From Escherichia phage phiWec187, in sequence record LC739536.1: 64,000 bases of DNA. One strand, written 5' to 3'. The stretch's first letter is position 1. Each line of letters opens with the position of its first letter. The notes under the pieces are model-generated. The model was not told the DNA's origin, did no database searches, and worked only from the letters and a program-made list of their open reading frames with translations. The translations under genes were made by a program, and so were the position numbers. Below, in pieces: positions 1 to 55,882 of this stretch.

Positions 1-20
1 TTTTTTTAAGGAGTAAAACC

Positions 21-116
21 ATGCCCTATTTACATTTATTTTTCGGTATCTTATTGACAGGATCTTTTTTCTTCTGTATGCTTGTTTCTATTGTAAACCA
101 CGTTTTAAGACATTAA
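21..116 (+). CDS. small hydrophobic peptide (31 aa)
   Basis: ATG at 21 with AGGAG RBS upstream; hydrophobic ORF MPYLHLFFGILLTGSFFFCMLVSIVNHVLRH; below track size cutoff. Confidence 0.3.
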   Translation: MPYLHLFFGILLTGSFFFCMLVSIVNHVLRH

Positions 117-125
117 GGAAACAGC

Positions 126-245
126 ATGAAAATTATTCCCGTACAATATAGCGTAATAAATCCAGCATATGAGGAAGGAAGGAAAACAAGCATGGTTTTA
201 TGCTGTATTGCTACTATAGCCATGTTGTTATATATTGTGTTTTAA
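126..245 (+). CDS. small membrane peptide (39 aa)
   Basis: ATG at 126 with AAGGAA RBS; hydrophobic C-terminus MVLCCIATIAMLLYIVF. Confidence 0.3.
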   Translation: MKIIPVQYSVINPAYEEGRKTSMVLCCIATIAMLLYIVF

Positions 246-274
246 TAGGTTTTATAGTTGTACGCTTTAAAGGC

Positions 275-326
275 TTGACAATTTTTTGTTATGCTTTAAA
301 CTATATCTTGAAAACGGCAAAGGCCG
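275..326 (+). promoter_or_regulatory. sigma70-like promoter plus leader stem-loop
   Basis: -35 TTGACA 275-280, candidate -10 TAAACT 297-302; hairpin CGGC-AAAG-GCCG 315-326 before RBS. Confidence 0.4.
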
Positions 327-345
327 CAAACAAAAGGGTAAAATT

Positions 346-669
346 ATGAAATCTGTGATCGGTGTTTATTTGGATAACTCTGATTTTTTCTATCATCGCG
401 CTCGTTTCCTTGATGCGATTGAAATGATAGAATCAGGCTTTAAAGAGTATCGCCTTGCACATGATGACCTGGAAGCACTACAGGGCAATAGTGTTTTTAC
501 ATTGCAAGCGAAAGCACTATGCAAAAGCCGGATCGACATTGCGAGCAAAAATATAGAACGCGGCATGTCCTGGTTGCGCACCGCAGAAATCAACATGGGG
601 CAATGGTACGGCAAAAACTTAGAAAATAAACATACTTTTGTCAATGTAGAAAATATTGAAGATTATTGA
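346..669 (+). CDS. hypothetical protein
   Basis: track ORF 286-669 trimmed to in-frame Met21 (ATG 346) downstream of promoter and hairpin. Confidence 0.5.
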   Translation: MKSVIGVYLDNSDFFYHRARFLDAIEMIESGFKEYRLAHDDLEALQGNSVFTLQAKALCKSRIDIASKNIERGMSWLRTAEINMGQWYGKNLENKHTFVNVENIEDY

Positions 670-732
670 TTGACAGCACACCTGACAGATAGTATATTGT
701 ATCTCATAGAGCGGGGAAATGGTTTCCCGCTC
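670..732 (+). promoter_or_regulatory. sigma70-like promoter plus leader stem-loop
   Basis: -35 TTGACA 670-675, 17 bp spacer, -10 TATATT 693-698; hairpin GAGCGGGG-AAATGGTT-TCCCGCTC 709-732. Confidence 0.6.
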
Positions 733-751
733 ACAACAGAAGAGATAAGAT

Positions 752-1036
752 ATGAAAATCACAAAAGCACTTTCCAACTATGCAGCACGTCGCGGCTTAT
801 GCTTAACCGTTGAAAACTTAGGGAAAGAAGATTTTTTGTGCTTTTGGGAGCTTGAGAATGATAATGAGTGGATCTTCTCTTATTCTATCTGCGAAGATCA
901 AAACGGTTGTTTATTAACCTGGCGCGGTAATATCTATCTACCGGAAGAAATCAAAGAAGAATTGCCAGGCACGATCATGACTGAGAAACAGCTTAAGGAA
1001 GTGATTAATTTTGTAGGGCAAAACATTAAAAAATAA
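752..1036 (+). CDS. hypothetical protein
   Basis: track ORF; ATG 752 after AGAAGAGA RBS-like stretch and leader hairpin. Confidence 0.55.
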   Translation: MKITKALSNYAARRGLCLTVENLGKEDFLCFWELENDNEWIFSYSICEDQNGCLLTWRGNIYLPEEIKEELPGTIMTEKQLKEVINFVGQNIKK

Positions 1037-1037
1037 T

Positions 1038-1096
1038 TTGACACTAGGCAAACAACGTAGTAAAGTTTATCACATAGGGCGGCAATAGTGCCGCTC
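1038..1096 (+). promoter_or_regulatory. sigma70-like promoter plus leader stem-loop
   Basis: -35 TTGACA 1038-1043, 17 bp spacer, -10 TAAAGT 1061-1066; hairpin GGGCGGCA-ATAG-TGCCGCTC 1077-1096. Confidence 0.6.
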
Positions 1097-1117
1097 ATAA
1101 CAGAAGAGAAACAAATC

Positions 1118-1288
1118 ATGATCCCAACTATGTTTTATGTATCGCGCAAAGGTCACAATATTTTTTGGTCTGAAGATTTAAATGAAGCCATGACGTTTGC
1201 CCGTGATCGTGTTGCTATTGGTGGCGTTAATATCACCGTAACCGATGAAAACGGCATTGAATACTATAACGGCGACGATGAAGAGTAA
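1118..1288 (+). CDS. hypothetical protein
   Basis: track ORF 1088-1288 trimmed to Met11 (ATG 1118) downstream of hairpin. Confidence 0.5.
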   Translation: MIPTMFYVSRKGHNIFWSEDLNEAMTFARDRVAIGGVNITVTDENGIEYYNGDDEE

Positions 1289-1296
1289 TTAATGAG

Positions 1297-1317
1297 GCGG
1301 GGGAGTATTCCCCGCCG
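1297..1317 (+). promoter_or_regulatory. intercistronic GC-rich stem-loop
   Basis: GGCGGGGG-AGTATT-CCCCGCC between stop at 1288 and RBS of next gene; no T-run so not a terminator. Confidence 0.4.
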
Positions 1318-1335
1318 TCAATAAAGAGGTAAATC

Positions 1336-1605
1336 ATGAAAATATCATTGGACGTTGCAATCAAGGCCATCGAATCCGGTTACACCCTGGTAAAAGATGA
1401 TAAGGCTAAAATAGTGCATCTTGTTAACAAGGAAACAGGCGAAAGCATGATCACATATAAAGCCGCCTACTTTCTCCAATCAGTAGCAGATCCGCGCGTA
1501 CAACGCCAGGTTACAGCGGCTATTGCTAAAAAATTATGTGCTTTACAGGGCACAAGTTTTAACGAGATCGCCCCGTGTTTTGACTGGTCGAGCTTGAAAA
1601 AATAG
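1336..1605 (+). CDS. hypothetical protein
   Basis: track ORF; RBS AAGAGG 8 nt before ATG. Confidence 0.55.
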   Translation: MKISLDVAIKAIESGYTLVKDDKAKIVHLVNKETGESMITYKAAYFLQSVADPRVQRQVTAAIAKKLCALQGTSFNEIAPCFDWSSLKK

Positions 1606-1606
1606 T

Positions 1607-1668
1607 TTGACAATACGCGGTTATCTGGTAAAGTGTACTACATAGGGCGGGGCAATAAGGCAACGCCC
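1607..1668 (+). promoter_or_regulatory. sigma70-like promoter plus leader stem-loop
   Basis: -35 TTGACA 1607-1612, 16 bp spacer, -10 TAAAGT 1629-1634; hairpin GGGCGGGG...CAACGCCC 1645-1668. Confidence 0.6.
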
Positions 1669-1686
1669 ATTAATGAGGGTAGAATC

Positions 1687-1791
1687 ATGTTAGAGAAAAT
1701 TTTTACGGTTGTAGTAGTTGGCCTGGCGTTATCGGTTGGATTGGTTGCAACTATGGCTAACATGATCCTATCTTCCCACGGTATCGGCTAA
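1687..1791 (+). CDS. small hydrophobic peptide (34 aa)
   Basis: ATG 1687 after GAGGGT RBS; ORF MLEKIFTVVVVGLALSVGLVATMANMILSSHGIG. Confidence 0.3.
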   Translation: MLEKIFTVVVVGLALSVGLVATMANMILSSHGIG

Positions 1792-1805
1792 AAGAGAAAC
1801 ACAAC

Positions 1806-2192
1806 ATGAAAACAGAAATCATTATTGAAATCATCAACGGTTATAAAGAAGCCTTTATTTTTGCCGAACCAGCGACGGATCACAATGGGGAATATATTGA
1901 GAATCTAGACGATTATGATTTTTCTCCTAGCGCCCTGAAACGTATTACCAGCGATGTGACCGCCTTTTGTAGTGCCAATGTTGCCGCTATCTCTGAGGCA
2001 ATGAGCGACGGCGCTACAGCAAACCAGATCGGGAATGATTTACATTTTACCCGTAACGGTCACGGCGTAGGTTTTTGGGATCGCCCTGAAATATACACTA
2101 CTAACACCGCCAACCGTTTAACTGATGCAGCTAAATTAATGCCATTGGTGCATGCTTACATTGGTGAAGATAATTTGATTTATATTGAATAA
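1806..2192 (+). CDS. hypothetical protein
   Basis: track ORF; AAGAGAAA RBS-like region before ATG. Confidence 0.55.
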   Translation: MKTEIIIEIINGYKEAFIFAEPATDHNGEYIENLDDYDFSPSALKRITSDVTAFCSANVAAISEAMSDGATANQIGNDLHFTRNGHGVGFWDRPEIYTTNTANRLTDAAKLMPLVHAYIGEDNLIYIE

Positions 2193-2198
2193 AAAGTA

Positions 2199-2257
2199 TT
2201 GACACCGATCCCCAATATGTTACTATTTACCACGTAGGCGGGAAATGGTTTCCCGCC
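2199..2257 (+). promoter_or_regulatory. sigma70-like promoter plus leader stem-loop
   Basis: -35 TTGACA 2199-2204, 16 bp spacer, -10 TACTAT 2221-2226; hairpin GGCGGG-AAATGGTTT-CCCGCC 2237-2257. Confidence 0.6.
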
Positions 2258-2280
2258 AGGTAATCAAAAAGGTAAATACT

Positions 2281-2670
2281 ATGCGCAACCTGGTTTCTGT
2301 TTCTAACGTTGAAAAATTCCAATCTTTACAGGGTATCGTTAACAACGTAGCGCCTTTTTTAGTAAACGGCTTGATTGCAAAGATGAAAAATAAACATCAT
2401 GCGGCATGGTCTGCTTACTGCTTTGATAATGATGAAAAAGCGGCTGAAATGATGTTAAATATGCTGTTAGACAGTGTAGAATCATCTTTACCGGAAAACA
2501 TCGCAGAAGAGATCACCTATCGTTATAATATGGCGATCACTTATCAGGAGGTTGCACAATTCAACATGATGGATGATGACGAACAACAGGATCAAGAAAT
2601 GTTTTGGGAGTATGCAGATCGTCAATCGGCTTTTGATGAAAAGTTAGCGATGTATTATAACGAATATTAA
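2281..2670 (+). CDS. hypothetical protein
   Basis: track ORF 2245-2670 trimmed to Met13 (ATG 2281), RBS AAAGGT upstream. Confidence 0.5.
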   Translation: MRNLVSVSNVEKFQSLQGIVNNVAPFLVNGLIAKMKNKHHAAWSAYCFDNDEKAAEMMLNMLLDSVESSLPENIAEEITYRYNMAITYQEVAQFNMMDDDEQQDQEMFWEYADRQSAFDEKLAMYYNEY

Positions 2671-2686
2671 TACACGGTAGAAGAAA

Positions 2687-2711
2687 GGGGCGCACTAAGC
2701 GCCCTTTTTTG
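2687..2711 (+). terminator. rho-independent terminator
   Basis: GGGGCGC-ACTAA-GCGCCC hairpin followed by TTTTTTG. Confidence 0.7.
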
Positions 2712-3397
2712 TATTCTTTTTTCACGATGGAAACAACACGTAAAGAATAGGCGTAAAGGTGGCGTAAAACAGCCTAAAACCGATTATAACCGCTTAAACA
2801 AGGTATTAATGACTAATCACCTTGCCAGGATGAAAAAGCTGTTATAAAGCTGTTTAGAGCGTTTAGAGCACATAGGAAATAATTTGCTTTTTATCTTGCC
2901 TTTTATCCTGCTTTTGATTATTATTATGGAACGGGCGGCACCTGGGGACAGGGGAAGATAATCACCGGAAGATCCCGCTATATATTGATAGCTTCCACCT
3001 ATCAAAAACGTTCACCGAAAAAAGTGAATAGATCGCGGTATCGAGCTAATCAAGGAGCAGATGAATAACCATACCATGAAGATCATAAGGCGTTTACAAC
3101 GTGTTTTAGACCGCTTGTTTTTAATTTCTTCATGCAACTATCTGGCAAAAACAGCCTTTTTCTTGTCTTTCCTCTTAAATAATAATCATTCTCATTTATA
3201 GCTGATTATTTATGCAATAAACTGAATAATGTAATAATGATAATCATTCTTAACTTAAGACCATCTAACTTATAAAATAATAAGTTATCTAACTAAATTA
3301 AAACTAATTATCTTACTTTTATTTATAACATACTGTTACTATCTTATTGATAACCTTATATTAAACAACAATAAGCAATGTAAATCATTACTAAGCT

Positions 3398-3441
3398 AAC
3401 TATAATCTATCTAACCCTTAAAACTATAACTATAATCTATC
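3398..3441. repeat. direct repeat AACTATAATCTATC x2
   Basis: identical 14-mer at 3398-3411 and 3428-3441 in ORF-free AT-rich region. Confidence 0.7.
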
Positions 3442-3528
3442 GAATTGTTGCACAAAGTAACTATTAAATTGTTAGTAACATTGCTAAATAATTAATATCC
3501 TATCTATTTATGATCTAATCTTTACCTT

Positions 3529-3552
3529 CCTATTTATTACCTATTTATTACC
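3529..3552. repeat. tandem repeat CTATTTATTAC x2
   Basis: CCTATTTATTACCTATTTATTACC read directly. Confidence 0.7.
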
Positions 3553-3565
3553 TAACTAATCATTT

Positions 3566-3591
3566 CATACAGTAATCATTGCATACAGTAA
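3566..3591. repeat. direct repeat CATACAGTAA x2
   Basis: TCATACAGTAATCATTGCATACAGTAACT. Confidence 0.6.
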
Positions 3592-3640
3592 CTATAACAA
3601 GAAATATAATTCGCAAGCGTATCATTAGCAGCCTATGCCG

Positions 3641-3799
3641 GACACATAGGCGGCTAATAATAACGCAACTACACACCCCACATAATAACCATCACCGATA
3701 GTTATTATTTGTGTTTATGTAGCTTGCAACAATTGCAAGCGCAACAATATACATGGTATATTGTATCCCTTACATTGTTGCGGTGCGTTATTATTAGCT
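3641..3799. repeat. nested inverted repeats / palindromic region
   Basis: GCCTATG..CATAGGC; GCTTGCAA-CAA-TTGCAAGC; outer arms ATAATAACGCA (3661-3672) and TGCGTTATTAT (3786-3799). Confidence 0.6.
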
Positions 3800-4017
3800 A
3801 ATGTTTAGAACATTGGCTATAATATAAGCTAAGTAATAAGCTATGCAATAATAAACATGGCGAATAATGACACTGATGATCATAATGCGCCACCCTCCAG
3901 GGGGCGCTATGTGAACACAAAGAAATCTTTCTTGTCAAGAAAAATATCATCATTATTGCGCAAAATTATTTACATCTGAATAGATGATTTTTCATACTAT
4001 TGCCCCCATATAACTTA

Positions 4018-4072
4018 CTATTTGTTGCAATGTATTCCCCTATTTGTTGGATAAAACTATCCCTATTTGTTG
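4018..4072. repeat. iteron-like repeats CTATTTGTTG x3
   Basis: copies at 4018, 4040 and 4063, spacing 22-23 bp (about two helical turns). Confidence 0.65.
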
Positions 4073-4143
4073 AGCCTACTTTCTTAAAAGCGTAATAAAT
4101 CAGAATTATCTTGATTTTTAGGGCGTTTTATAGTACAGAAAGT

Positions 4144-4352
4144 ATGCAAATGATAATCATTATCAGCTATCTTCCACGGGTGGCACTATTTCACGCAGGA
4201 TCATTTCATTTGGCAAGGTGTATATAGATGTTTAGACTTGCCAAGCCATTGATTTACTTAGAATTTATCTGTTTTGTTGTGAGTAGTACCTTTCTTGCTC
4301 AGAAAATAATCAAAAGTCTTATAAGTCATTGAATGATAATGCAAATGATAAT
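4144..4352. repeat. dispersed direct repeat ATGCAAATGATAAT
   Basis: 14-mer at 4144-4157 and 4339-4352, each beside an imperfect palindrome TGATAATCATTATCA. Confidence 0.6.
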
Positions 4353-4820
4353 TATTCTCATTGATATTTGAGGGGGACGGGCGGCAGAAATCGGGGGGCG
4401 CTGAAAATCGCGTTAAGCACCTCTCGCAAGCGAGCAGTATTTTGCGGCAAGTTATTGATATTATTGACTTTACGCTTATGAAAAGGGGGTGTGTCGAAAT
4501 AAATCGGGTATACCGGAAAATTTTTGTGGCATAGATATTTATTTGTCTATATTATGTACAAAGAGGTGTGTTAAAAATAATAGGTATATATAGAATAATT
4601 GATAGGGAAATCCTATACTAATCCCTATACTAATTCCTCCATTAATGATGTTCCTATGTTACTGTTCTTGTAATAGATGAAAAGATGCTATATGATGTGT
4701 GGCATGAAACGTAAATTTATAAGATGCAAATAATGCTTGCATTGAATAGAAATGCCTGTACACTGTGTTCCATAAGATATGCAATATCGCGCATAACAAA
4801 ACTACTAATGAGAGGTGTAA

Positions 4821-5138
4821 ATGAGAACCTTAGCTTTGTATATTGATCCTCACTCCATTCGAGAAATGCGAGATGTACAACAGGATTATGAATTCTACCC
4901 AGAAATTTGTGAACGCTATGAAACTATTCTTAGTTCTGTAGAAGATCCAGATACCAGTGAAACAGGTGTTTCCCACTTACTGTGGATGTTGAATGAAGTT
5001 CAGGATGGGTGTAATGGTATGTCTGAAACCAAACGCCATCGTTGGCTAGGCTATATTCAGGGTGTTATGGTTATGAAAAACCTTATTACAGTGGATGATG
5101 AACGTAACGCTACACGCCCCGTCTTTAATGGAGCATAA
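4821..5138 (+). CDS. hypothetical protein
   Basis: track ORF; GAGAGGTG RBS before ATG; first gene after the noncoding region. Confidence 0.55.
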   Translation: MRTLALYIDPHSIREMRDVQQDYEFYPEICERYETILSSVEDPDTSETGVSHLLWMLNEVQDGCNGMSETKRHRWLGYIQGVMVMKNLITVDDERNATRPVFNGA

Positions 5139-5139
5139 C

Positions 5140-5355
5140 ATGAAAAGCATTCAGGTGTGTATTGAAAATAATTGTGGTTATCTGGGATTGACACACGTTG
5201 CTTTCCCTCTTATATTAGATGCCGATATCGCTTACAGCGGAGTTGCTTATGTGTCATTCAAGACAATGAGCCAAGTACCTGGCTGGAAGTGGGAAGTAGT
5301 TGATGTTGTTGAAGGAGAAGACTATGTTTTCCTTCCACACGAATATACTGTTTAA
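5140..5355 (+). CDS. hypothetical protein
   Basis: track ORF 5095-5355 trimmed to Met16 (ATG 5140) directly after upstream stop; GGAG RBS. Confidence 0.5.
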   Translation: MKSIQVCIENNCGYLGLTHVAFPLILDADIAYSGVAYVSFKTMSQVPGWKWEVVDVVEGEDYVFLPHEYTV

Positions 5356-5369
5356 AAGAGGAAAAGAAG

Positions 5370-5540
5370 ATGAATAAAGAGACTACTGTGTACTTAGTAA
5401 CAAAGAATACCCCAGGCTGGAGCCAATGCAGCACTGTACCTTATAAAATCTGTGCAACACTAGCACAACGTGCAGAAGCAGAAGTGAATGCCATGCAATA
5501 CAGCTATGGTGAAATCATTCCTTTTACTCTTGAACAATAA
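5370..5540 (+). CDS. hypothetical small protein (56 aa)
   Basis: ATG 5370 with AAAGAGGAAAAG RBS; not in track because under 60 aa. Confidence 0.45.
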   Translation: MNKETTVYLVTKNTPGWSQCSTVPYKICATLAQRAEAEVNAMQYSYGEIIPFTLEQ

Positions 5541-5551
5541 GGAGTTGTGTA

Positions 5552-6004
5552 ATGTTTGAAATTGGTAAAGTGTATCGTTTTAAGAACCCATCTTATATCC
5601 GTAAGTTTGCTAACGTGTCTGAGTGCAATAGCAGGATTGCTTCTTTTTTAGGTGATTCCTATTTTCGTGTATTAGATGTGGATGATTGGTATGGTGTCAC
5701 TGCTTTGCAATCCTTAGCAGGAGAACAAGAAATTATCGCTCAAAATGAAGGAGACTTTCTTCAGTGTTACACGTTGCTTGCAAAAAGTGAGTTTGAATAC
5801 TTTGTAGAAGTATTAGAAGAAGCACCAAAAAGTAAGCATGAAGAGAAATACCTGCTTGTAGTGGATGGAGTTCCGATCATGGAAACCATCTCCCGTGAGG
5901 AAGTTGAAAAAGAGGCGAAACGTTACAAGCTGGATCGTACACAGAGTGTAGTTGAAGTCTATTCTCTTGTTGGTGTTGCAGATATTAGTGTGAACATCGT
6001 ATAA
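5552..6004 (+). CDS. hypothetical protein
   Basis: track ORF; AAGGAG RBS. Confidence 0.6.
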   Translation: MFEIGKVYRFKNPSYIRKFANVSECNSRIASFLGDSYFRVLDVDDWYGVTALQSLAGEQEIIAQNEGDFLQCYTLLAKSEFEYFVEVLEEAPKSKHEEKYLLVVDGVPIMETISREEVEKEAKRYKLDRTQSVVEVYSLVGVADISVNIV

Positions 6005-6007
6005 TAT

Positions 6008-6220
6008 ATGTGTAATGACAGATACATTCTTCGTGTATCTGATAAGTCTCCTATGTTTGACTGGCGGGGCTGGTGGCTACTAGCTCCGATGCAAGGTCTG
6101 ACAGACGTGGAAAAGGAGGCTTATGTGTATACAAAAGAAGAGATAGAAGATAGTCTTTATTTGACAGATAACATTAAGAATGGTATCTTTGAGTGTAAAT
6201 TGAAAGGAGAGGAAGAATGA
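6008..6220 (+). CDS. hypothetical protein
   Basis: track ORF; stop/start overlap with next gene. Confidence 0.5.
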   Translation: MCNDRYILRVSDKSPMFDWRGWWLLAPMQGLTDVEKEAYVYTKEEIEDSLYLTDNIKNGIFECKLKGEEE

Positions 6221-6516
6221 CTATTACAGAAAAACTGCGCTGTATTGCAAAGCAAAGTGGAGAAGGTTTATGGTTTCCTATTGAGGAAATTATTCAGGAC
6301 TGTTATGATCAGGCTAAGACTGGCAAATACTCCAAAGCATTTAAACCGTCTGTTTTCGGTTTGGATGATTATCCAAAAAATGAACAAGCAAAGAAACGAC
6401 AAGTTGATTTGATTGATCTTGCTATGGAAGCACTACGAGAGCATGGGCTTAGTAAGGTGTATGCTTTAAACACCAAAGAGGGCTTTGTAGATTCAGTGAT
6501 CGTAGACTGGTATTAA
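6217..6516 (+). CDS. hypothetical protein
   Basis: track ORF; ATGA overlap with upstream gene. Confidence 0.55.
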   Translation: MTITEKLRCIAKQSGEGLWFPIEEIIQDCYDQAKTGKYSKAFKPSVFGLDDYPKNEQAKKRQVDLIDLAMEALREHGLSKVYALNTKEGFVDSVIVDWY

Positions 6517-6525
6517 GGAGAAGTC

Positions 6526-6894
6526 ATGCAAGAGAATAGTAAAGTGTGTAGCATGAAAAGCAGCCCTTATTTGCTACAATTTTATGAGTGGTGGTTAGAA
6601 CAAGAAGATACAAACTTTAGCAAAAAGCATTATGGTCTTTGCACGTGTCTTGTAGACTTCTTGTACAATATTGCTTGGATAAAAGATGTTGAGAATGTAT
6701 CAAAGCTCCAATCCTCTGTACGAGAGGAAATGAAGGAACAATTTAAGAAAGCGGGTTTGAACCATTTACATCCGTTTAATACGGATTTCTCGCACTACTT
6801 TACGGAAACAGAACTAGGCATTGCACACCTTAATAAAGAACGTGTACAATGGGTGATTGATCGTATTCGTGATATGGAGGAATACAATGGTTAA
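6526..6894 (+). CDS. hypothetical protein, paralog family A
   Basis: shares LLQFY, LxHLHPFN and HLNKERVxWV blocks with ORF 7518-8102. Confidence 0.55.
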   Translation: MQENSKVCSMKSSPYLLQFYEWWLEQEDTNFSKKHYGLCTCLVDFLYNIAWIKDVENVSKLQSSVREEMKEQFKKAGLNHLHPFNTDFSHYFTETELGIAHLNKERVQWVIDRIRDMEEYNG

Positions 6895-7105
6895 GTTTAA
6901 AACTTTCTGTGCAATCACTGTTTGTCTTATTCTTGCATACGTGTTATTCTCTAGTATCATTCGTTTAGGTGAGTATATGGCAAGAGAAGCTCGTGAAAGT
7001 GAAGCTAAAAAAGAACAGTGTATTGTGTTCAAGCATCAAAGAGATGCTGAAAAGTTTCTCGCACTTGATTGCAATCGCTATGTATCTTATCAAATGTATG
7101 AGTAA
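6887..7105 (+). CDS. small membrane protein, paralog family B
   Basis: track ORF trimmed to Met11 (GGAGGA RBS); N-terminal TM helix; C-terminal ExCIxxKHxxxAExFL block shared with ORF 11599-11823. Confidence 0.5.
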   Translation: MVKFKTFCAITVCLILAYVLFSSIIRLGEYMAREARESEAKKEQCIVFKHQRDAEKFLALDCNRYVSYQMYE

Positions 7106-7114
7106 GGAGGATTT

Positions 7115-7339
7115 ATGGTAAAACGTCTGGAATGGGATGCGTGTACTGCTCACGCTTGTCACTGCGATATTGTTGAAGATCCTAATGGAGAAATGGTGTA
7201 TTATGAAGATTACGAAGCATTGCACAATGCTGTGATTGCTTTGCTGGATGATATTAGCTCACGCTATCCAGGACAACAGTTTACGTGTCCACATATTCAA
7301 CTGTTAGCCAAACTTACGGAGTATCCAAGTGTTCCATAA
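7115..7339 (+). CDS. hypothetical Cys-rich protein, paralog family C
   Basis: CDIVxDPxGExV...DY block shared with ORF 12475-12747; AAGGAGGA RBS. Confidence 0.55.
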   Translation: MVKRLEWDACTAHACHCDIVEDPNGEMVYYEDYEALHNAVIALLDDISSRYPGQQFTCPHIQLLAKLTEYPSVP

Positions 7340-7340
7340 T

Positions 7341-7508
7341 ATGGGTGTCCCTGAACAACTCCTCTTTATTGTAGGACTAGTAGGCTTATTGGCGGCTGGC
7401 GCTAAAGCCGCTTCTCACACGCATCACATAATGTTAAGATTTCTATTCCTACTCCCTTCTATCCTCGTATTATTAGTCATACTGATCGACAACATTTTTC
7501 ACAATTAA
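7341..7508 (+). CDS. small membrane protein (55 aa)
   Basis: ATG 7341 right after upstream stop; two hydrophobic segments; no clear RBS. Confidence 0.3.
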   Translation: MGVPEQLLFIVGLVGLLAAGAKAASHTHHIMLRFLFLLPSILVLLVILIDNIFHN

Positions 7509-7517
7509 GGAGAGGTC

Positions 7518-8102
7518 ATGAGTAAAATTATACCAAGCAGTTATGAATTATTGCAGTTTTATGTATATTATATAGACTGGGTTACTAGATCGAATGTTAA
7601 AGACAATGCGATGTTTAGTAAAAGCATCTGTTTAACAGAAAGTATCTTCCGTTACTGGCACACAGGTAGAAAGTGTACACACAGTGAAGCTATGCGCATT
7701 GTAGGTGAATACCTGGAGCAATTGCAAAAAGCAGAGTTACCTGTCCTTCACCCATTCAATGAATCTAAAGAAGAATTAGAACAAGAATGTAAGGAAGGTA
7801 AGTGCCATTTGAATGAAAAACGTATCGAATGGGTAAGGCAACGTTTAGCCGATGCAGGAAAGCCTCCTAGTGACTCTGACTATACGTGGTATGATGTAGA
7901 GGGTTTAGTTCAAGGTTTTGAGGCTTGTGCTATAGATAATACCAACTTTGCCAAAGTTTTATGCGAGGCTTATGACCTGGCAGATAAAATCCGAAATCAT
8001 GGATGGAAACAAGAGCATAAAGAATCATATGAACGCCTTGACAAGATTTTCAAACAGATCTATTCTAACCACAAGAAGATGTTCCAAATGGAGGATGTGT
8101 AA
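7518..8102 (+). CDS. hypothetical protein, paralog family A
   Basis: AAGGAGAGG RBS; conserved blocks with ORF 6526-6894. Confidence 0.55.
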   Translation: MSKIIPSSYELLQFYVYYIDWVTRSNVKDNAMFSKSICLTESIFRYWHTGRKCTHSEAMRIVGEYLEQLQKAELPVLHPFNESKEELEQECKEGKCHLNEKRIEWVRQRLADAGKPPSDSDYTWYDVEGLVQGFEACAIDNTNFAKVLCEAYDLADKIRNHGWKQEHKESYERLDKIFKQIYSNHKKMFQMEDV

Positions 8103-25798: not shown

Positions 25799-25838
25799 AT
25801 CTCCTCCTAATAACCCCCTTGCGGGGGTTTATACTAGA

Positions 25839-26492
25839 TTAATTATCAGAGGATACTTTATCAAGTTTTTCAGAGACTGTCAATACTTTTTCTTGTGATT
25901 CTTTCATTTCTGCTAAAATACTTTCAGCTTCATCACTATCAGGATCACCAGTCAACAGCATACTAATTAGTTGCTCCTTGCTGAAGTTCAGAATATCTTC
26001 CGCTGTTAGCTCCAGTTGTTCTTCGATCTCTTCGATAAAAGTTTCACCGCCTGAAAAAGCATCTCGCAGTTTTGCAACTTCCATCGCTTCTTCTGGGGTT
26101 GCCCCAGCATCTAAAGCTGCTAAAGCAAAATCTGCCCCACTACCCACAGCATAATAATCTTCAGTTAAAGGATATGCTCGCGTGGGATTATTACCCTCGT
26201 GCATATAAATTTTACCGTCTGGGTGAACAACCAATGCCACAAATTCTTCATCTTCTTTATCAGGATCTGACTGGATCACCAAACCTGGGATTGTCTCTTG
26301 TGCTGCTTGGCATTGTAAGTTTTGTTCGAACCAAGAAAAGAAAGTCAGGATAGAAGACAGACGTCCTGCACCACCAACAAGGTAATCCCCAATTTTACGC
26401 ACTTTCTTGAAATTTAAAGTGTCTACACGACTACCTACTGTTACTTTACCGTCAGACAGAATTTTGTTACGTGTTGCAATAATTGTTGTCAT
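25839..26492 (-). CDS. hslV: HslV-like Ntn-hydrolase peptidase
   Basis: N-terminal MTTI (Thr nucleophile), KKVRK, GGAG, AVGSGADFALAA resemble HslV; acidic C-terminal extension. Confidence 0.55.
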   Translation of the reverse strand: MTTIIATRNKILSDGKVTVGSRVDTLNFKKVRKIGDYLVGGAGRLSSILTFFSWFEQNLQCQAAQETIPGLVIQSDPDKEDEEFVALVVHPDGKIYMHEGNNPTRAYPLTEDYYAVGSGADFALAALDAGATPEEAMEVAKLRDAFSGGETFIEEIEEQLELTAEDILNFSKEQLISMLLTGDPDSDEAESILAEMKESQEKVLTVSEKLDKVSSDN

Positions 26493-55200: not shown

Positions 55201-55230
55201 TTGACAACATAGCTAGTTATTTGCTAAGAT
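55201..55230 (+). promoter_or_regulatory. sigma70-like promoter
   Basis: -35 TTGACA 55201-55206, 18 bp spacer, -10 TAAGAT 55225-55230. Confidence 0.45.
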
Positions 55231-55534: not shown

Positions 55535-55610
55535 GGTTCCATAGCTCACTGACGAGAGCGCACACCTCATAAGTGTCGAGGGCAGGGATTGTAACCCTGG
55601 GGAACCACCA
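55535..55610 (+). tRNA. tRNA-Met/Ile2 (anticodon CAT)
   Basis: acceptor GGTTCC/GGAACC, anticodon loop CTCATAA, encoded CCA; T-loop ATTGTAA atypical. Confidence 0.65.
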
Positions 55611-55641
55611 TTTAAAAGGAGGTGCTATGCATCTCCTATAT

Positions 55642-55728
55642 GCAAGTGTGGTGGAATTGGTGATACACATTGTGCTTAAAACGCAACGCTTAAATGCTTG
55701 AGGGTTCGAATCCCTCCACTTGCACCAA
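55642..55728 (+). tRNA. tRNA-Leu (anticodon TAA)
   Basis: acceptor GCAAGTG/CACTTGC, loop CTTAAAA, long variable arm, T-loop TTCGAAT, CCA. Confidence 0.8.
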
Positions 55729-55742
55729 AACCTAAAAATATC

Positions 55743-55771
55743 TTGACATTTACTTAGTTTTTTGTTATAGT
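55743..55771 (+). promoter_or_regulatory. sigma70-like promoter inside tRNA array
   Basis: -35 TTGACA 55743-55748, 17 bp spacer, -10 TATAGT 55766-55771. Confidence 0.55.
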
Positions 55772-55782
55772 TACTATGAAAA

Positions 55783-55864
55783 CGGGGTGTATCTCACCTG
55801 ACTTCTAATCAGGCGTTAACCGAGTAATTGGAGTATGCAGGTTCGAATCCTGTCACCCCGGCCA
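55783..55864 (+). tRNA. atypical tRNA-like gene (possible Arg, TCT)
   Basis: perfect acceptor CGGGGTG/CACCCCG, T-arm GCAGG-TTCGAAT-CCTGT, CCA; CCTGA-CTTCTAA-TCAGG arm too close to 5-prime end for a canonical cloverleaf. Confidence 0.4.
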
Positions 55865-55882
55865 AAAAGTTTTAAAAACTAC

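Follow-up and report, generated by a model that had tools for sequence, protein, structure and literature searches.

Small open reading frames (ORFs) near the start of a 64,000-nucleotide stretch of Escherichia phage phiWec187 (LC739536.1; the whole stretch analysed is hereafter called the window) are headed by a repeated unit of promoter, leader hairpin and ribosome-binding site (RBS). Four strong copies lie at 670-2257, each consisting of TTGACA, a spacer of 16-17 nucleotides (nt), TAnnnT, 10 nt and a GC hairpin built on GCGG/CCGC. We consider that they form early-gene cassettes of the 'promoter-early stem-loop' (PeSL) type in a phi92-like phage, in which the hairpin would be an RNA protector and the whole unit a homology patch, and we give this reading a probability of roughly 0.6. 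The units are real and well defined, and they introduce no new principle. Over window 1-2800 the identity to Justusliebigvirus genomes (VEcB, PaulScherrer, Paula and others) is 95-97.5%; judged from this similarity, the source phage is a Justusliebigvirus of the phi92/phAPEC8 group, within the Stephanstirmvirinae.

One unit is about 85 base pairs (bp) long and comprises a near-consensus sigma-70 promoter, the tetranucleotide C-R-T-A, the GC hairpin and, some 10 nt behind it, a purine-rich RBS, followed by an ATG. The modules of promoter, leader hairpin, purine-rich RBS and small ORF that a preliminary description of this DNA had proposed are real, with sequences as described there and with identical geometry in four of them. 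TTGACA is perfect in all four strong units, the hexamers of the predicted promoters score 10-11 out of 12 against the consensus, and the gap from the -10 hexamer to the hairpin is an invariant 10 nt (4/4). C-A-T-A or C-G-T-A stands in front of each of these hairpins, and an ATG with its purine-rich RBS comes about 20 nt after it; the hairpin-to-ATG distance is constant (mode 21-22 nt). The pattern TTGACA-N16/17-TANNNT-N10-12-GCGG occurs four times in the window, always in the array, where 0.01 occurrences were expected, and none of 100 shuffles reached four. When 10 loci with 52 distinct unit contexts are compared, the hairpin mostly starts after a gap of 9-11 nt from the -10 hexamer. The same design appears in Seunavirus (PVP-SE1 group, Vequintavirinae), there with other stems, such as GGCGGGAGAGGTTCCCGCC and GGCCGGGAGCGGTTCCCGGTC, and with a gap of 8-10 nt.

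We place the predicted transcription start at the R of the conserved C-R-T-A, that is, at the purine after C and the eighth nucleotide past the -10 hexamer. With the start at this R, the hairpin would begin at +4 of the messenger RNA (mRNA). The preliminary description had put the hairpins within about 10 nt of the start; they lie closer, about 3 nt past it as predicted here. Folding from the predicted starts gave three unpaired nucleotides and then the stem in 4/4 strong units, and the predicted folds of their 5' untranslated regions (5'UTRs) range from -14.4 to -16.8 kcal/mol, with z scores of -2.9 to -4.3. The stems comprise 8-10 bp in three of the strong units, and that of unit 3 is degenerate and interrupted.

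One more hairpin of the array, GGCGGGG(GAGTATT)CCCCGCC at 1296-1316 on the plus strand, is promoterless and sits between the ORFs at 1118-1288 and 1336-1605. The preliminary description had recognized this intercistronic copy, although its coordinates, 1297-1317, have to be shifted by one nucleotide. The best promoter candidate for it is only TTGAAT-18-AAGAGT. Its position is conserved in Paula, PaulScherrer, phAPEC8 and KKP_3264, and TSP7 has a variant hairpin there.

We then asked on which strand the pairing is maintained. With a strand-symmetric stem definition, internal transition mismatches were tallied in Python for 39 distinct hairpins from 10 loci; 19 of the internal non-Watson-Crick pairs were G.T, which pair only in the sense strand, and one was A.C, whose pairing would require the antisense strand. 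An excess of 19 G.T over 1 A.C speaks for selection of the structure on the strand that is transcribed, and it points to a hairpin maintained at the RNA level. In fact, A>G and C>T changes in the phi92 orthologues yield G.U pairs; hairpin 4 of phi92 reads GGCGGGAAGTGGTTTCCCGCT. Stems differ in sequence and in length (6-10 bp), loops vary from 3 to 5 nt, and the GCGG and CCGC cores are 8-11 nt apart, yet pairing is kept. What had been taken for a AAATGGTTT loop is actually a TGG triloop closed by three A-T pairs. The sense strand folded better in 37 of 49 contexts, which we use as secondary evidence only, since the hairpin finder is biased towards sense G.T pairs. Two MAFFT alignments of the hairpins (A1 and A2) were unusable for pair counting because their 3' arms were misaligned, and an alignment from a covariance model (A4) was not used for covariation because minus-strand matches were mixed in.

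The comparison of the window with its relatives by BLAST revealed that homology breaks fall inside the units. Paula carries one extra unit with its ORF (Paula_0074); this extra cassette is bordered on each side by sequence that aligns to the block 1597-1657 of the window, and the patch common to the two flanks is AAAAAATAGTTTGACAA. Phage phi92 is devoid of window 1112-1596 and harbours a chimera in which the promoter and hairpin are those of the unit '1038' and the ORF, with the leader stretch behind the hairpin, is that of the Paula unit '4610', with the crossover within a hairpin that is identical in both parents, GGGCGGCAATAGTGCCGCTCA (the hairpin at 1077-1096). Window and phi92 are identical through the hairpin at 2237-2257 and unrelated beyond it, and the homology of phAPEC8 and KKP_3264 to the window breaks at 2249, inside hairpin 4. 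A deletion in phAPEC8 (...GTCAATA|GGGCGG...) joined the promoterless hairpin directly to hairpin 3, with a match of only 3 nt at the junction. As seen at local positions 2377-2430 of phAPEC8, this left two promoterless leader hairpins in tandem, the ORF and promoter of window 1324-1644 having been lost. The junction 1791/1801 is an exception and falls outside any unit. Because the crossovers from unit to unit are spread over the unit, they look like homologous exchange and not like a site-specific reaction. These comparisons support the view that the units serve as homology patches through which recombination adds, removes or swaps ORF cassettes with their expression signals intact.

How such a leader might work can be outlined from these features. 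The host RNA polymerase would start at the R of C-R-T-A, so that the mRNA would open with about three free nucleotides and then the hairpin. This 5'-terminal stem-loop would hinder RppH as well as the 5'-end-dependent entry and scanning of RNase E. In read-through transcripts, and in the case of the promoterless copy, the hairpin would be internal and could obstruct both scanning RNase E and 3' exonucleases; such obstacles in read-through RNA would explain why the promoterless copy is conserved. In addition, the hairpin would provide all cassettes with one leader, independent of the ORF behind it. The leaders of ompA and T7 phi10 are the classic cases of 5'-terminal stabilizers. The principle that a base-paired 5' end protects mRNA has been reviewed (PMC3997798). 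By this analogy, the hairpin probably protects the mRNA end. Among the roles suggested in the preliminary description, stabilization of the 5' end appears to be the best fit to the sequences, given a stem that begins about 3 nt past the predicted start and pairing kept on the sense strand only; for a dedicated role in timing early expression we found no evidence.

Several points weigh against this reading, or at least against a strong version of it. The transcription starts, the assignment of the genes to an 'early' class and the stabilizing effect are all inferred, and no transcriptome of this phage group giving starts, RNA half-lives or timing was found in the literature. The three free nucleotides might still let RppH act, and protection would then perhaps be partial. 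A strong hairpin does not seem to be obligatory, because that of the unit at 275 is weak and that of the unit at 1607 degenerate. The G.T and A.C counts come from related, non-independent sequences, and identical hairpins within one genome possibly reflect recent duplication or gene conversion and not selection. Junctions in intergenic units are also partly expected, since only recombinants that preserve the ORFs survive.

The hairpins could be read in other ways. In the original view of PeSLs, and in the Paula annotation, they would be terminators or attenuators that insulate the cassettes from upstream transcription, and one RB49 PeSL stem-loop did lower lacZ expression as strongly as rrnB T1 (PMC2839356). 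The array stems are stable and GC-rich, and the Paula record annotates the array hairpins as 'terminator' features; however, these features are annotated on the minus strand, and the genes are on the other one. An intrinsic terminator combines a GC hairpin with an immediate U-tract, and the array hairpins do not: only 0-2 T are found in the 8 nt that follow them, in agreement with the absence of T-runs reported earlier, and neither strand shows a U-tract. Of the remaining GC hairpins in the window, those with the usual terminator form mostly have at least five T and are flanked by A- and T-tracts; one of them, at 2682-2710, is the separate canonical terminator of the array. Furthermore, a hairpin at +4 to +24 of its own transcript would, if it terminated efficiently, abort the mRNA of its own consensus promoter. 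Because the hairpins have no U-tract and lie inside their own transcript, the earlier statement that they are not intrinsic terminators appears to be correct, and we regard an insulating function as unlikely. The inverted repeats could instead be DNA operators at which a dimeric phage or host repressor, bound at +4 to +24, silences the early promoters jointly. Palindromic repeats at a fixed distance from the -10 hexamer occupy a typical operator place, the loops are alike within the subfamily (TGG, TAG, ATGG and ATAG), and PaulScherrer has annotated putative DNA-binding or transcription-factor genes downstream. Nevertheless, cores spaced 8-11 nt apart on stems of 6-10 bp are ill-suited to one rigid dimer, the changes preserve pairing and not sequence in the strand-asymmetric manner counted above, promoterless copies are conserved, and Seunavirus has different stem sequences at the same position, which together make a repressor site rather improbable. 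A structure selected at the RNA level would equally be expected of a binding or cleavage target of a phage-encoded RNA-binding protein comparable to T4 RegA or RegB, which would adjust translation or decay for the early genes as a whole; the semi-conserved loops (U-R-G closed by A-U) and the constant RBS distance (mode 21-22 nt to the ATG) are in line with it. We identified no candidate for this protein, the array ORFs being all of unknown function, and the loops of some units are unrelated (GAGTATT, ACAAG and CAC, or AGG/CGG in Seunavirus), while the likeness of the others is explicable by common descent or gene conversion; we consider that such a target has only a small chance of being the explanation.

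RNase III processing as in the T7 early region, also proposed in the preliminary description, is suggested by the frequent processing of polycistronic early phage RNAs and by the intercistronic position of one hairpin. RNase III requires about 20 bp (about two helical turns), or at least a full turn and more, and the array stems are merely 6-10 bp long, without internal-loop architecture. Most copies are moreover at the extreme 5' end of the transcript, where there is nothing to process, and no Rfam family matched; the proposal did not hold up, and we judge it very unlikely. A promoter-proximal hairpin also recalls lambda nutL and HK022 putL, and hence antitermination signals of the nut/boxB or put kind, by which RNA polymerase would be modified. 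The put elements consist of two larger stem-loops, however, unlike the hairpins described here; boxA-like matches are at chance level (77 vs 65 +/- 8) and just one of them overlaps a unit, the array has no internal terminators to suppress, and every gene has its own promoter, so that antitermination is highly improbable as well. In phAPEC8, GTAGGGCGGCAATGGTGCCG is labelled as a 'putative promoter determined with PHIRE', and the repeated 20-mer could be taken for a phage-specific promoter or, given 3-nt loops like those of N4 hairpin promoters, for a promoter of the N4 type. But PHIRE merely detects repeated 20-mers, and the labelled sequence sits directly behind a 'host dependent promoter'; each copy lies 10 nt past a consensus sigma-70 promoter that already accounts for transcription. 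The approximately 140 kb of PaulScherrer that we read contain no annotated RNA polymerase, and the rV5 paper argues that the phage group relies on host RNA polymerase (PMC3606486), which leaves this interpretation with hardly any probability.

A different proposal sees in the hairpin more than a passive RNA cap, namely a dedicated cis-element that a phage factor would recognize, either as RNA for an array-wide shut-off or as folded single-stranded DNA for an integron-like, site-directed exchange. The strand asymmetry would be as compatible with a fold of one DNA strand as with RNA. We hold this proposal to be unlikely; if it were true, the array would be a phage-borne system for the acquisition of gene cassettes common to Stephanstirmvirinae and Vequintavirinae.

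PeSLs are known from the T4-like phages RB49/phi1, PST/T4 and nt-1/KVP40 (Arbiol 2010, PMC2839356; Comeau 2014, PMC4122927), where a strong sigma-70 promoter, a GGGG..CCCC stem-loop and a Shine-Dalgarno (SD) sequence make up units in ORFan-rich regions with cassette exchange and mini-circles (PMC2839356, PMC4122927). The units of the window resemble them as composites of about 60-100 bp with a near-consensus sigma-70 promoter, a GC stem-loop of the GGGG...CCCC kind, an SD sequence and the start codon of a small ORFan, in many copies clustered in a variable ORFan region; and the junctions of insertions, deletions and replacements between close relatives lie inside the units, stem-loop included. 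At the sequence level we thus found every PeSL feature (promoter, stem-loop, SD and small ORF in a cluster, and junctions), with activity predicted. They differ in that the phage belongs to the Stephanstirmvirinae and is not T4-like, and in that the stem-loop is fixed at +4 of the predicted transcript, a placement rare or absent in published PeSLs: the stem-loops of RB49 are mostly between or over the -35 and -10 hexamers, and in PST and nt-1 they are upstream of the promoter. The terminator role claimed for PeSLs fits poorly with stem-loops that have no U-tract and lie in their own transcript, and the strand-asymmetric G.U pairs seen here point to an RNA function.

With the leaders of E. coli ompA and papA and of T7 phi10, the last of which is used in pET vectors, the units would share a stable stem-loop a few nucleotides from the 5' end, a strong promoter and an accessible RBS afterwards. 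Those leaders are single and experimentally proven, whereas the array repeats its element on a dozen cassettes, at a 5' position that is predicted; there is no sequence homology between them and the array hairpins. Like morons and integron cassettes, the units are self-contained small genes with their own expression signals that are individually gained and lost. Morons, however, have a promoter and a terminator without a conserved linker, and integron cassettes are promoterless and moved by an integrase on folded attC sites. We found no link of the array to a recombinase, and its crossovers look like homologous exchange. PaulScherrer annotates a putative site-specific recombinase elsewhere in its genome.

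Within the window, all array elements lie on the plus strand. The preliminary description had counted at least five copies of the unit; the four strong ones stand, but the fifth, with a good promoter at 275-302 (TTGACA-16-TAAACT), is weak, since its hairpin at 315-326 (CGGC-AAAG-GCCG) has 4 bp, lies 12 nt past the -10 hexamer and folds at -6 kcal/mol with a z score of -1.6. The ORF after it, at 346-669, encodes 107 amino acids and belongs to a PHROG of unknown function. Unit 1 has the promoter TTGACA-17-TATATT at 670-698 (-35 at 670-675, -10 at 693-698; 11/12 match), a predicted start at A706 and the leader hairpin GAGCGGGGAAATGGTTTCCCGCTC at 709-732, formed as GAGCGGGGAA-ATGG-TTTCCCGCTC with 10 pairs, one of them G.U (-16.8 kcal/mol, z -4.3); a purine-rich RBS and the ORF at 752-1036 follow. 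In unit 2 the promoter TTGACA-17-TAAAGT at 1038-1066 (-35 at 1038-1043, -10 at 1061-1066; predicted start A1074) precedes hairpin GGGCGGCAATAGTGCCGCTC at 1077-1096, which is GGGCGGCA-ATAG-TGCCGCTC with 8 pairs including one G.U, and the ORF at 1118-1288. Unit 3 begins with TTGACA-16-TAAAGT at 1607-1634 (-35 at 1607-1612, -10 at 1629-1634, with TG before the -10; predicted start A1642); its degenerate hairpin at 1645-1668, GGGCG...CGCCC with an inner GC/GC pair, is part of a 5'UTR of -16.8 kcal/mol (z -3.95) that includes a second small hairpin, and the ORFs behind it are at 1687-1791 and 1806-2192. The promoter of unit 4, TTGACA-16-TACTAT at 2199-2226 (-35 at 2199-2204, -10 at 2221-2226, again with TG before the -10), has its predicted start at G2234; hairpin 4, GGCGGGAAATGGTTTCCCGCC at 2237-2257, folds as GGCGGGAAA-TGG-TTTCCCGCC with 9 perfect pairs, ahead of the ORF at 2281-2670. 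The terminator at 2682-2710, a true intrinsic one with a 12-pair stem and a T-run, closes the array in the window. The array ORFs in the window are 34-129 amino acids long, and neither Pfam nor PHROGs assigned a function to any of them.

The window opens in the middle of the array, as further units are present upstream in Paula and PaulScherrer. The whole array covers about 9 kb with at least 12 co-oriented units, of which those in the window are the 3' half; some 1.7 kb separate its end from the genome terminus. PaulScherrer has 12 strict units at 84.0-92.8 kb of MZ501100, all in one orientation, and scans of its 40-kb array stretch and of a further 100 kb detected no GCGG-type unit outside the array. 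The array of phi92 corresponds to gp225-gp248 and stops about 1.1 kb short of the right terminal repeat annotated there. Downstream of the array terminator, window 2711-4820 is an ORF-poor region of about 2.1 kb with several short tandem repeats and a GC content of 22% at 3201-3600; it aligns to the right end of phi92, including the annotated 343-bp direct terminal repeat (about window 4070-4415). Because it aligns across the right terminus of phi92, the window crosses the physical end of the genome, with the array transcribed towards it. At about window 2986-3006 relatives carry an extra unit with two ORFs and a terminator that are absent from the window (Paula local 6492-7367); a repeat of about 21 nt borders the site, and one of the two extra ORFs is Gp30.8-like in phi92.

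A covariance model (R1) built from the hairpins found those of type A and missed the GGGCGGCAATAGTGCCGCTC type; in the window it matched 708-733 and 2235-2259 only. The exact hairpin was present in just two IMG/VR contigs, both from relatives, and a search of window 1-5000 against Rfam at a permissive E-value gave chance-level matches only. Examples of the design in Seunavirus are found in the early region of Cronobacter phage EspYZU15 (local 2749-8024) and at about 121.4 kb of PVP-SE1 (GU070616), where a promoter is annotated. Our literature search found no paper on such units in Justusliebigvirus, Phapecoctavirus, PVP-SE1 or rV5.

Other consensus promoters of the window were also inspected. 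A cluster of 15 transfer RNA (tRNA) genes at 55535-58453 has TTGACA-N18 promoters before or within it, at 55201, 55743, 55883 and 57191, mostly with an extended -10 (TGTTAnnnT), and none of the consensus promoters of the tRNA cluster carries a GCGG leader hairpin. At 62058-62120, an unrelated hairpin of 8 bp (TCTACCCC/GGGGTAGA) begins 11 nt past the consensus promoter TTGACA-18-TAAAGT; the matching site in PaulScherrer lies upstream of the portal gene (local 2764), and this may be a second, independent case of a promoter with a leader hairpin. On the minus strand at 25812-25883, TTGACA-17-TAAAGT is followed after about 20 nt by the hairpin AACCCCC/GGGGGTT, which abuts an AGGAGG RBS; this arrangement differs from the array units.

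The array extends the PeSL idea, that of regulatory cassettes doubling as recombination linkers, beyond the T4-like phages to the phi92/phAPEC8 and PVP-SE1 groups, and it corrects the misleading labels 'terminator' and 'phage promoter' that the hairpins have in the databases. Consensus promoter, 21-nt 5' hairpin and RBS together make a compact natural part for synthetic biology, and the array offers a clean system in which to examine how 5' hairpins shape the lifetime of early phage mRNA. Phages of both groups are widely isolated for phage therapy, and among the ORFan regions that vary from isolate to isolate, the array is the main one.

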